A DNA stretch of 3,419 nt from a virus (Duplodnaviria; Heunggongvirae; Uroviricota; Caudoviricetes), in the IMG/VR virus record IMGVR_UViG_2541047443_000021. One strand, given 5' to 3'. Position numbers: made by a program. The number at the start of each line of letters is the position of its first letter. The stretch's first letter is position 1. This document shows, piece by piece, positions 1 to 3,000 of the stretch.

Positions 1-3000
1 GCCATTTTTTGCTCTGCGGCGATCTACAGATTCTCCGAAACGCTTCTCCATAAATAATTCATAGGCTGCTCGTTCATCCGATACTGCTGCCAGTGATGCC
101 AGCGCAATCCGTGCCAGCTCTTCCGCTTCTTCTGCTGGAAGCACAACGTTGCTACCCGGTCCGTATGTTTCGCGCCAATGCTGGATTGTCAGCAGTCGAT
201 CTTTGGTAATAGTGGTCATAGCTATTTCACCTTAATCTCAACATTTCGCAGCTTTAGCTCTACTGGCATGTCTGACTTTCCTGTTAATGCTAATGCGAGA
301 TTTTCTGGAGTAATGAGAGCAGTTATTGTTTTCCCCATCGCCAGACGAATAATCATTCGTATTTCGCGATCGTCACATGCTCCTGGTCGAACAATTGATA
401 TTTGTCCGTTCATCTCACTCTCCTTTGATGCGAATGCCAGCGACGCGTAATGCGTGTTCTAGGTCAATCAGGTAAAGCCAACTGCCATTTTCTTTAGGTA
501 TCATGACATGTCGCTCATCTGCATTTATCGGGTGTCCATATCGAAGGTCGTAGCGAGTCGGTAATTGAACTTCCCGCGCTTCCAGTTCAGCAATACGCTT
601 GCTCCCATCAGAGATAACGCCTTCGTAATACTCACGCTGCTCGTTGAGTTGTGATTTTGCTTCTTCCAGTCCATCCAGCAAATCAGCGATAATATCCGCT
701 TCCCGATGACGGATGTGACGCTTAAACGCAGCAAGAGCCGCATCACAATCCCGTTCAGCATTTGGGCTGTCCGGGGTAGCCTGATACCACGCCAGCGTCG
801 ATTGATAGTTTTGTGCTGCCTCACGCAGTGCCTGATAGTCAATCTTGCCCACTGGCTGCCTCCTTTGCCGGGATTTCTAACTTTTGAGTGGTTGTATCAA
901 ATTCAAACAACTTAACCACGTCATCAAACAGGACATAATCACCATCAGGATCTTCAGTCATATCAGCGCCACAATCCTGACCGCACGAGTCGCAACCTCC
1001 CATATCAAGCTCGTATCGCTTCAGGTTCGCGATATTTGATAAATTCAGCGCCAGTATAGCCAGATCATTAACCTCGTCTGCGATATACCCTGCACCATGT
1101 CCATACATTTCAATGCGGGATATGATTTCTTCTACACGTTGTTTTGTGATCGTCATTTTTCTCTTCACTCCGATATACAAGGATTACTACACCCCCTCTG
1201 CTGATTGCGCGAGCTGGATCCCCTGGTTCCATGCCGTCAATACCGAAGGCTTCGAAAAATGCATCTATTGCCTTTTGGCGTTGCTCCTGCTTACGGCGTT
1301 TATTCCATTTTTTCATGAACAACAGTGACAGCCATCGTCCGCTGCAGAACATGATGTAGAAATAACCAAGGAGCGCTAGGCCGGTGTTCAGGGCTGTATC
1401 GATCGTTATCGTGGTGTTGATGTTCACTTCACACCTCTCTGTTTGTTGATAAGTTCAATATCCTGCTGGCAACTGGCGCAAGCTCTGCATCCACGAACAG
1501 CCAGGCGTCGCCGCTCATCTATCGGATCGCCACACTCGCAACAATGAGTAGCAGATGGGGCATTACTATCGGATTTGTATTTTTGCAGGGAGAGATTGCG
1601 CTGCAATTCTTCGATTTCAGCGGCGTTGTCGATGATATCTGCCATTTTCCTTTCCTTCAGGCATGAAAAAAGGAGCCGAAGCTCCTTTGGTTTTAGAATT
1701 CGAATTGCCTTGCCCGCAGGCTTTTCAGCATTGGTCTGGCCCGCTGAACTACGAAACTCGACTGGTCAAGCCGTGCCGCCTCTCTCAGTAGCACATCTCT
1801 GTTCTTCGTCACCATGTAGATGGTCTCAAACGCAATGTCATACAGCTTGTTCGTGTATGAGGAGTTCAGCTCTTTCATGATCGGATACAGGTGTTTGCTG
1901 AGGTCCTGGGCTTTTTCCATCCAGAGTTGCATGTAGCAGAGGAGGATGATTTCCTCGTCTGTGAATTGTTGCTGTGGTTCTGCTTGTGCCGACTGCATGT
2001 TGCGAAGTTTCTTTTCGCACTCGATGAAGTATCTGCGTATCTGTCGGCCTTTTTCGTTACGCTCTACCATCGCCGTTTCTTTGGCTGTATCGAGGGTAAG
2101 GTGGTAGTCTTTTTTCCCTCGCCCATAACCTATTTCCCGTTTCTGGGAAATAGCTATATAGTCCTGATTTTCAACGAATCCGTACTCTTCAATACGTTCT
2201 GTAATCCACGATGCAAAGCGTTTACCTACTCCAAGAAAAGTATGTAAATCACGGGCATTAACGAGAAGAGTGGTTTCGTTGGCGATAGTGCCGTTGAATA
2301 CGGGGATGCGTTGACTGGTCATGATGACCTCCTTATTTGTTTAGTTTATAACCGCCAGTTAGTAGCTGGCGGTCGGGTGTCAACTGAGCCAAATAAGAAG
2401 CTCTGGGCATATTCCCCTTGCGGGTGTTGTATTACGCCTCTCCACCCGACCTTTGTACGGATGTAACTATGCCAAATTGCAGGCATAAAAAAGCCGCAAA
2501 GCTATCGGGTGCGGAGACCGCTTATTTGTTCAGTGCGGTCAGTATGCGATAGCTCTGGAGGATTTGTCAATCAGCGGAATATTGATGAACGGGTAACGGT
2601 AAATGCCTCATCCAGAAAATTAACGCAAATTCGCATCGCAAACTTGCGTTAATTATCTGAAATATCAAGTTAAATCCCCTTAAATGTTTGGGGCACTATT
2701 GGGGCAAAATGTGGTTGTTTGGGGCACTATTGGGGCAAAATGTGGTTGTTTGGGGCATATTTGGGGCAAAAAAGAACGTATAAAGAACGGTGTAAAATTG
2801 ATTTCTTCATGGTCAAAATGAGGTGTAACAGATTGAAAAATATATGCTCTTGGACGATCTTCGGTAATTCTGTGTTTTTAATGCTTCATGGTTTCAATAT
2901 GTCCGTACATGGAATAATAAAGCACCAGAACTTTAGCCATTTCTAACCACTCCTCGTGTTATCTCTATTCCGTAGCGATTCGCTACCACTTATTTAAAGA

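Follow-up and report, generated by a model that had tools for sequence, protein, structure and literature searches.

The wrbA gene is the classical site of integration of 933W/Sp5-type phages. Sp5 integrates in wrbA, and its attP has been recovered experimentally after excision (PMC2669165); a putative attB in wrbA had been identified earlier for 933W, as cited in PMC7430833. The 933W phage and the Stx1 and Stx2 phages with a 933W-type integrase (AP005153, LC645440 and the PA-series) have the same attP with the same annotated 7-bp site, and in these phages int directly adjoins attP. The lambda att site likewise has a 7-bp overlap bounded by heterologies and short motifs repeated on both arms, and lambda Int likewise has an arm-binding N-terminal domain and a tyrosine recombinase domain, the Int of the present system being known from reference phages. 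As in the lambda b region, the genes beyond attP are downstream of int in the circular form. A different kind of event is known from the prophage-bounded inversions of O157:H7, such as Sp6/Sp14 in FRIK804, where Sp6 is one partner and exchange occurs in a short repeat of two inverted lambdoid prophages (PMC7430833). The integration site of Sp6 is potC (PMC8190617).

Here we analyzed a 3,419-nt stretch of viral DNA from the IMG/VR record IMGVR_UViG_2541047443_000021, referred to below as the window. Positions 2860–2940 are almost certainly the attR left in wrbA by the integration of a lambdoid phage of the 933W/Sp5 type (Sepvirinae), an already known and ordinary feature. The closest relative is the Sp5 (VT2-Sakai) attR of O157:H7 strain Sakai (ECs_1251 ant through to ymdF), with an identical P arm, core, wrbA stub and ymdF allele, the same ant-traR-DUF4752 order and 99.7% identity over window positions 1153–3419. 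The window differs from it in a third 31-bp unit in the P arm, in one substitution at 2309, and in being Sp6-type left of 1204, where Sakai is Sp5-type. The records of 933W-type phages are free-phage or complete-prophage sequences, whereas the window is the attR end alone. Compared with lambda, the core GTTTCAA and the candidate arm motif TGGGGCA are different, and attB lies inside a coding sequence. The only non-routine aspect of the window is the unusual combination of two O157 prophages behind the junction.

Table 1. Features of the 3,419-nt window.
Feature	Position	Strand	Remarks
Sp6-type segment (potC prophage nin-region)	1–1203	−	100% identical to O157:H7 Sp6-type prophages
DUF551, 5′ part	1–219	−	in Sp6-type segment
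63-aa ORF	222–413	−	in Sp6-type segment
ead/Ea22	415–852	−	in Sp6-type segment
105-aa ORF	839–1156	−	in Sp6-type segment
DUF4752 gene, chimeric	1110–1427	−	5′ part Sp5-type, 3′ part Sp6-type
Sp6-type/Sp5-type switch interval	1204–1241		38 bp identical in both parents, inside DUF4752
TraR/DksA-type C4 zinc-finger protein	1424–1645	−	
ant, AntA/P22_AR_C antirepressor	1693–2322	−	first gene reading inward from the junction
Non-coding P arm of phage attP (prophage right end)	2323–2890		identity to phage records
Structured RNA matching Rfam sRNA-Xcc1 (RF02221)	2363–2451	−	69.1 bits against a gathering score of 53; model positions 1–87 of 87
31-bp tandem repeat	2685–2777	+	3 units here; 2 in Sakai, AP005153 and several other loci
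Truncated wrbA′ ORF	2878–2940	−	18 native WrbA codons, then phage-supplied Lys, His and stop
Extended imperfect attP/attB identity, CATsGTTTCAAyATGTC	2887–2903		15/17 identical
7-bp att core/overlap, GTTTCAA	2891–2897		common to attP, attB, attL and attR; four-way comparison
Host DNA, B′ side	2898–3311		first 43 nt of the wrbA CDS, with the wrbA-ymdF intergenic region intact (wrbA upstream region included)
ymdF	3312–3419	+	35-aa O157-type allele; one 66-bp KGG repeat unit fewer than K-12

The att Core and the Breakpoint in wrbA

To place the breakpoint, the window was aligned with the uninterrupted wrbA-ymdF locus of K-12, the Sp5 right end of Sakai and an Stx2a phage record. The att sites were also compared four ways (attP of the Stx1-converting phage AP005153, attB of K-12, attL of Sakai, and the window), aligned on the heptamer that they share. 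The attP of AP005153 reads ...gcttcatg GTTTCAA catgtctaagg..., and the attB in K-12 wrbA reads ...gtgccatc GTTTCAA tatgtccgtac.... In both the window and Sakai, attR is made up of the left arm of attP, GTTTCAA and the right arm of attB. The attL of Sakai is made up of the left arm of attB, the core and the right arm of attP, and is the exact reciprocal of the attR in the window. The attL expected in the genome of the window would be laid out as ...GCGTGCCATC GTTTCAA CATGTCTAAGGATATGG..., then int; the P′ arm beyond GTTTCAA, joined to the 3′ wrbA fragment, would read CATGTCTAAGG....

Heterologies flank the core on either side, with G in the phage and C in wrbA at 2890, and T in wrbA and C in the phage at 2898. 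At 2890 the window matches the phage and at 2898 it matches wrbA, so strand exchange was confined to 2891–2897. Window positions 2846–2897 showed 100% identity to the AP005153 attP, in which GTTTCAA is annotated as "attachment site"; in LC645440 it is annotated as "duplication due to insertion." Several linear phage records terminate exactly at window position 2890 or 2897. The wider, imperfect identity of attP and attB around the core (Table 1) is predicted to be the core-type Int binding region, which we consider probable.

To the right of the breakpoint, positions 2891–3388 are collinear with K-12 wrbA-ymdF (491 of 501 aligned columns identical). Of 5,426 complete E. coli genomes, 214 (approximately 4%) matched a 115-bp probe across the attR junction in full, and approximately 5,200 matched only from 2887 rightwards, that is, carry intact wrbA; given this division, the match across the junction is not due to chance. 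No uninterrupted wrbA with the window's sequence left of 2891 was found in the K-12 alignment or in the 5,426 complete genomes. That something other than phage integration had truncated wrbA, such as an IS element, a deletion or an unrelated island, is vanishingly improbable and is refuted by the four-way att comparison, since the left flank and phage attP are identical right up to the last base ahead of the core, the reference lysogens carry the reciprocal attL, and there are no IS ends and no other target duplication; we found no evidence in its support. A tRNA scan found no tRNA or tmRNA genes in the window, which rules out a tRNA-type att site.

The Truncated wrbA Reading Frame

The minus-strand ORF from 2940 to 2878 has its ATG at 2940–2938 and its stop codon at 2880–2878, and its translation is MAKVLVLYYSMYGHIETMKH* (20 codons). 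The part matching WrbA, MAKVLVLYYSMYGHIETM, is identical to residues 1–18 of K-12 WrbA at 18/18 positions (BLASTP, E = 1e-11 as a single comparison). Codon 17 is ACC here and ACG in K-12, a synonymous difference that is phage-encoded, and Met18 (CAT at 2887–2889) is phage-encoded as well. With both codons coming from phage DNA, the WrbA match at the protein level extends 4 nt past the DNA breakpoint. Left of 2891 the sequence bears no relation to wrbA and matches phage DNA exactly. The distance from the wrbA ATG (2940) to the ymdF ATG (3312) is 371 nt, compared with 372 in K-12.

The first-pass annotation of this DNA had proposed that an element integrated in wrbA has an att junction here, and the four-way att comparison and the K-12 alignment, which showed wrbA collinearity from 2891 rightwards, both agree with it. 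It had read the exact WrbA N-terminus on the minus strand from 2930 down to about 2877; the 18/18 match bears out the identity, but the frame starts at 2940, not 2930, and the interval assigned to the junction (2860–2935) clips the first two codons of the stub. The same start-codon error explains why the spacing to ymdF had been put at 381 bp. Unrelated sequence followed by a stop two codons on had also been described, and we do see Lys, His and stop after residue 18, a point at which intact wrbA, in K-12 and in complete E. coli genomes, has a different sequence. The crossover core, expected at 2871–2880, had been placed 11–20 bp too far into the phage arm, an error that goes back to the phage origin of codon 17 and Met18. 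Among reference genomes, to which the search was confined, the lysogens Sakai and OkiPb01680 do carry the second wrbA fragment with a duplicated core that had been anticipated at the opposite junction.

Phage Identity and the Integrase End

From 1153 to 3419 the window shows 99.7–99.9% identity to the Sp5/VT2-Sakai right end, to more than 100 Stx phage records and to numerous chromosomes of O157:H7. Up to the core (1153 to 2890/2903) it is 99.6–99.8% identical to many records of Stx2a, Stx2 and Stx1 phages, and the P arm is common to Stx1 phages, Stx2 phages and an stx-less remnant. An stx region would be expected tens of kb from here, and attL and the integrase gene of this genome likewise fall beyond the 3.4 kb of the window. 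In the free phage (AP005153), int ends 22 bp from the core, on the side opposite the P arm, and in Sakai and OkiPb01680 int and xis are found at attL, beside the 3′ part of wrbA. As the reference int and xis sit at this other junction, the window represents the non-integrase end. The reference Int is a protein of 436–444 aa with PF12167 (Arm-DNA-bind_2) and PF00589 (tyrosine recombinase) domains.

These comparisons sustain what had been suggested at the outset about the element: that the wrbA site is one used by Stx2-converting and related lambdoid phages, that this is the end without int, and that the genes next to the junction read inward, ant, the traR/dksA-type gene, DUF4752 and ead/Ea22 all being on the minus strand. 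The comparison of the left part with phage genomes was more mixed, as the Stx phages match from 1153 onward, but left of approximately 1204 the sequence is Sp6-type and hence not simply Sp5-type. An intact Sp5-type prophage can therefore not be assumed here, because the DNA turns Sp6-type at 1204–1241.

Repeats, RNA Element and Signals in the P Arm

Each unit of the 31-bp tandem repeat in the P arm contains two copies of TGGGGCA, 11 bp apart. The window contains 7 copies of this heptamer where 0.35 would be expected, and 6 of these lie in the P arm as pairs spaced by 11 bp. The P′ arm of attP has a direct pair together with one inverted copy. The TGGGGCA repeats are good candidates for arm-type Int binding sites, and the Arm DNA-binding domain of the cognate Int was counted toward this assignment.

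The structured RNA matching sRNA-Xcc1 lies 41 nt upstream of the ant start codon, within a leader that is strongly structured (z = −4.9). In APSE phages this RNA family has been reported upstream of an ORF6N gene (PMC7313666), and there are hints of a recurrent association of sRNA-Xcc1 with antirepressor-like genes. Between the TGGGGCA repeats and ant there is also a 22-nt near-palindrome (2613–2659). Scanning of 2200–3419 gave a sigma-70-like site on the minus strand (2570 to 2541), upstream of the sRNA-Xcc1/ant leader, in keeping with no more than chance expectation. No intrinsic terminator was found in the scanned region (2200–3419) on the minus strand from the wrbA stub to ant, a result that is suggestive only.

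Proposed Route of Integration

The arms are observed to be identical to attP and attB, and the position of the core and the gene content are likewise observed; from the domain content of Int and the lambda paradigm, we infer how the element may have entered wrbA. An Int with an N-terminal arm-binding domain would recombine phage attP with chromosomal attB inside wrbA codons 15–17, the exchange taking place inside the 7-bp overlap. On integration, attP would be split: its int-xis side would become part of attL and adjoin the 3′ part of wrbA, and its P arm, with the ant-traR-DUF4752-ea22 block, would be joined to the first 50 nt of wrbA, upstream of which the wrbA-ymdF intergenic region is unaltered. 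This leaves wrbA cut to a 20-codon stub, with its final two sense codons and stop derived from the phage. A lambda-like mechanism with a 7-bp overlap would be the natural reading, as Int has both arm-binding and tyrosine-recombinase domains.

An Sp6/Sp5 Hybrid Behind the Junction

Positions 1–1203 are 100% Sp6-type (the prophage at potC) and 1242–3419 are Sp5-type with one mismatch. The parent-specific bases are those of Sp6 at 1173, 1191 and 1203 and those of Sp5 at 1242, 1266 and 1275, and the alleles switch cleanly. Since the switch falls inside the DUF4752 gene, the encoded protein is chimeric. We did not find the hybrid arrangement in the 5,426 complete E. coli genomes or in phage records. 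None of these genomes (0/5,426) covers at least 80% of the window in one place, on which ground EDL933 and every other finished genome were rejected as its origin, and no complete E. coli genome or phage record covers more than 74% of it. The chimeric 111-mer (window positions 1170–1280) had 0 exact matches in IMG/VR viral contigs, in GTDB species genomes and in JGI metagenomes.

Three NCBI drafts and several independent sequencing runs together gave 13 contigs with the chimeric DUF4752 protein, two of which (in GCA_000462725.2 and GCA_000462805.2) match the whole window with 1 mismatch. The longest short-read draft contig with the chimera is 77.7 kb. An exactly reciprocal chimeric protein is on record as well (ERD65843.1), known from one 1.9-kb contig alone, and a second Sp5/Sp6 DUF4752 chimera has crossed over in the other long identical stretch. 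The parental Sp5 right end and Sp6 are 240–280 kb apart on opposite strands in Sakai, FORC_044 and PA20. Such inverted parental repeats, with a clean allele switch in a shared stretch, are what a prophage-mediated inversion would require. A gene-conversion patch ending at the shared hok homology was ruled out, as one of the contigs (L007) is still Sp6-like beyond hok.

Origin of the Hybrid

Whichever origin of the hybrid holds, the identification of attR is unaffected, and in each of the readings weighed here attR is genuine. With the parental segments on opposite strands, a single homologous crossover between them would invert the intervening chromosome: exchange in the 38 bp shared with the inverted Sp6 prophage would uncouple the wrbA attR from the Stx2a-type prophage and flip approximately 240–280 kb within one replichore. 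Both ends would thus be inside one replichore, and within-replichore inversions are usually disfavored. We regard this origin as tentative and somewhat unlikely, despite the clean switch between parents of opposite orientation, the recurrence of the chimera on separate drafts and runs, and the existence of its exact reciprocal. It is also favored by contig L007, which stays Sp6-like for 2.9 kb past the crossover, beyond hok, the only other Sp5/Sp6 homology, and by the status of Sp6 as a documented inversion terminus in O157 (PMC7430833). Compared with the Sp6/Sp14 case, however, the putative partner would be the Sp5 right end, the inverted segment of 240–280 kb would not be terminus-centered, and the arrangement is absent from the 5,426 complete genomes searched, the chimeras being confined to short-read drafts. 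Left of the window, contig L007 has a 190-bp gap and only 97–98% identity to canonical Sp6, and the draft contigs disagree past the window's left end. The second chimera, in the other long identical stretch, and the natural mosaicism of DUF4752 also weigh against an inversion, as does the continuity of the short-read contigs through the 38-bp stretch. In a k = 31 assembly, contigs unbranched through it suggest a single copy, and so probably no reciprocal junction in those genomes.

The same unbranched contigs fit a hybrid that is real but arose through mosaicism of the modules flanked by DUF4752, or through an internal deletion or rearrangement, to give a variant or remnant wrbA prophage with no reciprocal product. 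This is a reasonable possibility, although we would not give it an even chance. Many genomes, complete ones included, have DUF4752 proteins in which an Sp5-type N-terminus is joined to other C-termini, the second Sp5/Sp6 chimera has a different crossover, and Sp6-like ea22/DUF551 sequence occurs in direct orientation in the early-left region of Stx phages; moreover, OkiPb01680 has a 6-kb int...ant remnant at wrbA produced by such a deletion. However, L007 retains the nin-region order of Sp6 (DUF551, hokD, 92-aa ORF) and not early-left content, the direction in which this order reads is wrong for a functional phage, and no phage record has the arrangement. An assembly artefact, in which two prophages were mis-joined through the approximately 275-bp, 92%-identical DUF4752 repeat so that the Sp6-type left part is spurious, seems unlikely. 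It would account for chimeras being found on short-read draft contigs and in no finished genome, and for a switch exactly in one of the two longest identical stretches when the second chimera has its switch in the other; a mis-resolved two-in, two-out repeat would yield a "reciprocal" chimera too, and the NCBI contigs conflict near their repeat-rich ends. Yet at least 8 assemblies produced by different projects and pipelines have the junction, on the 2-unit as well as the 3-unit VNTR background, the alleles switch cleanly with no mixed consensus, and an identity of 38 bp is shorter than an ordinary read and is normally resolved.

Implications for Stx Prophages in O157

The attR junction itself has a practical use as a marker of wrbA occupancy and is employed in O157 lineage typing. 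If the inversion were true, attR would be far from attL and int and inverted relative to them, leaving two hybrid prophages unable to excise. The Stx prophage would be locked in, with precise excision lost, and the wrbA promoter would read through the 20-codon stub into an ant-Sp6 nin-Q gene string. A hybrid that is both real and reciprocal would be a new prophage-bounded rearrangement that immobilizes an Stx prophage; the type of event is already documented for other prophage pairs, and this instance would bear on the mobility of Stx phages and on variation in O157 genome structure.

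Hybrid prophage sequence and host flank

The prophage portion of the window proved to be a hybrid. Positions 1-1203 are of the Sp6 type (the potC prophage; 100% identity) and the sequence is of the Sp5 type (the wrbA prophage) from 1242 on, with a clean switch in the crossover interval 1204-1241. The DUF4752 protein WP_032213510.1 is the chimeric product of this Sp6/Sp5 hybrid (window 1-1427). The hybrid arrangement was found in none of 5,426 complete genomes and in no phage records; 13 short-read contigs carried it, and one contig carried the reciprocal DUF4752 chimera.

On the host side, K-12 ymdF has one more 66-bp KGG repeat unit than the allele in the window. 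Upstream of ymdF, six substitutions within a 7-nt block (3202-3208, AGAAACA in place of K-12 CTGCCCG) abolish a perfect 7-bp hairpin of K-12, and there is a 1-nt deletion after 3276 relative to K-12.

Features in the window and at related wrbA loci (L015, Sakai sequence with attL; L016, OkiPb01680 wrbA locus)
Feature	Position	Strand	Details
ymdF	3312-3419		O157 allele, 35 aa
Rfam sRNA-Xcc1 match	2363-2451	-	Full-length, 69.1 bits vs gathering score 53
22-nt inverted repeat	2613-2659		86% complementary, 3-nt spacer
31-bp variable-number tandem repeat	2685-2777		attP P arm
Hybrid wrbA ORF	L015 2108-2686		Sakai attL, outside window
Prophage remnant	L016 5569-11139		~6 kb, in wrbA, E. coli OkiPb01680

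wrbA at the opposite junction

At the Sakai attL, an in-frame ATG from the phage P' arm, overlapping the stop codon of int (ATGA), opens an ORF for a hybrid WrbA of 192 aa (MINHILRHVETM-ARAV...) without the native first 14 residues. In OkiPb01680, PGAP labels the corresponding ORF wrbA. The remnant in that strain has the gene order int-xis-...-DUF551-ea22-DUF4752-traR-ant, and apparently arose from a 933W-type prophage when the DNA between ea22/DUF551 repeats in its early-left region and its right-end region was deleted.

Repeats and a structured leader in the P arm

The tandem repeat has three units in the window vs two in Sakai. Each unit holds two copies of TGGGGCA spaced 11 bp apart, and the motif is found again on the P' arm. 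These repeats are probably arm-type integrase sites whose number varies among lysogens. Between them and the ant leader lies the inverted repeat, with no T run after it; it may represent an operator-like palindrome or else form a hairpin in RNA.

The sRNA-Xcc1 match precedes the antirepressor gene by 41 nt and is part of a strongly structured leader (z -4.9). In other phages ant is under RNA control and, by analogy, this element may regulate ant in cis or in trans.
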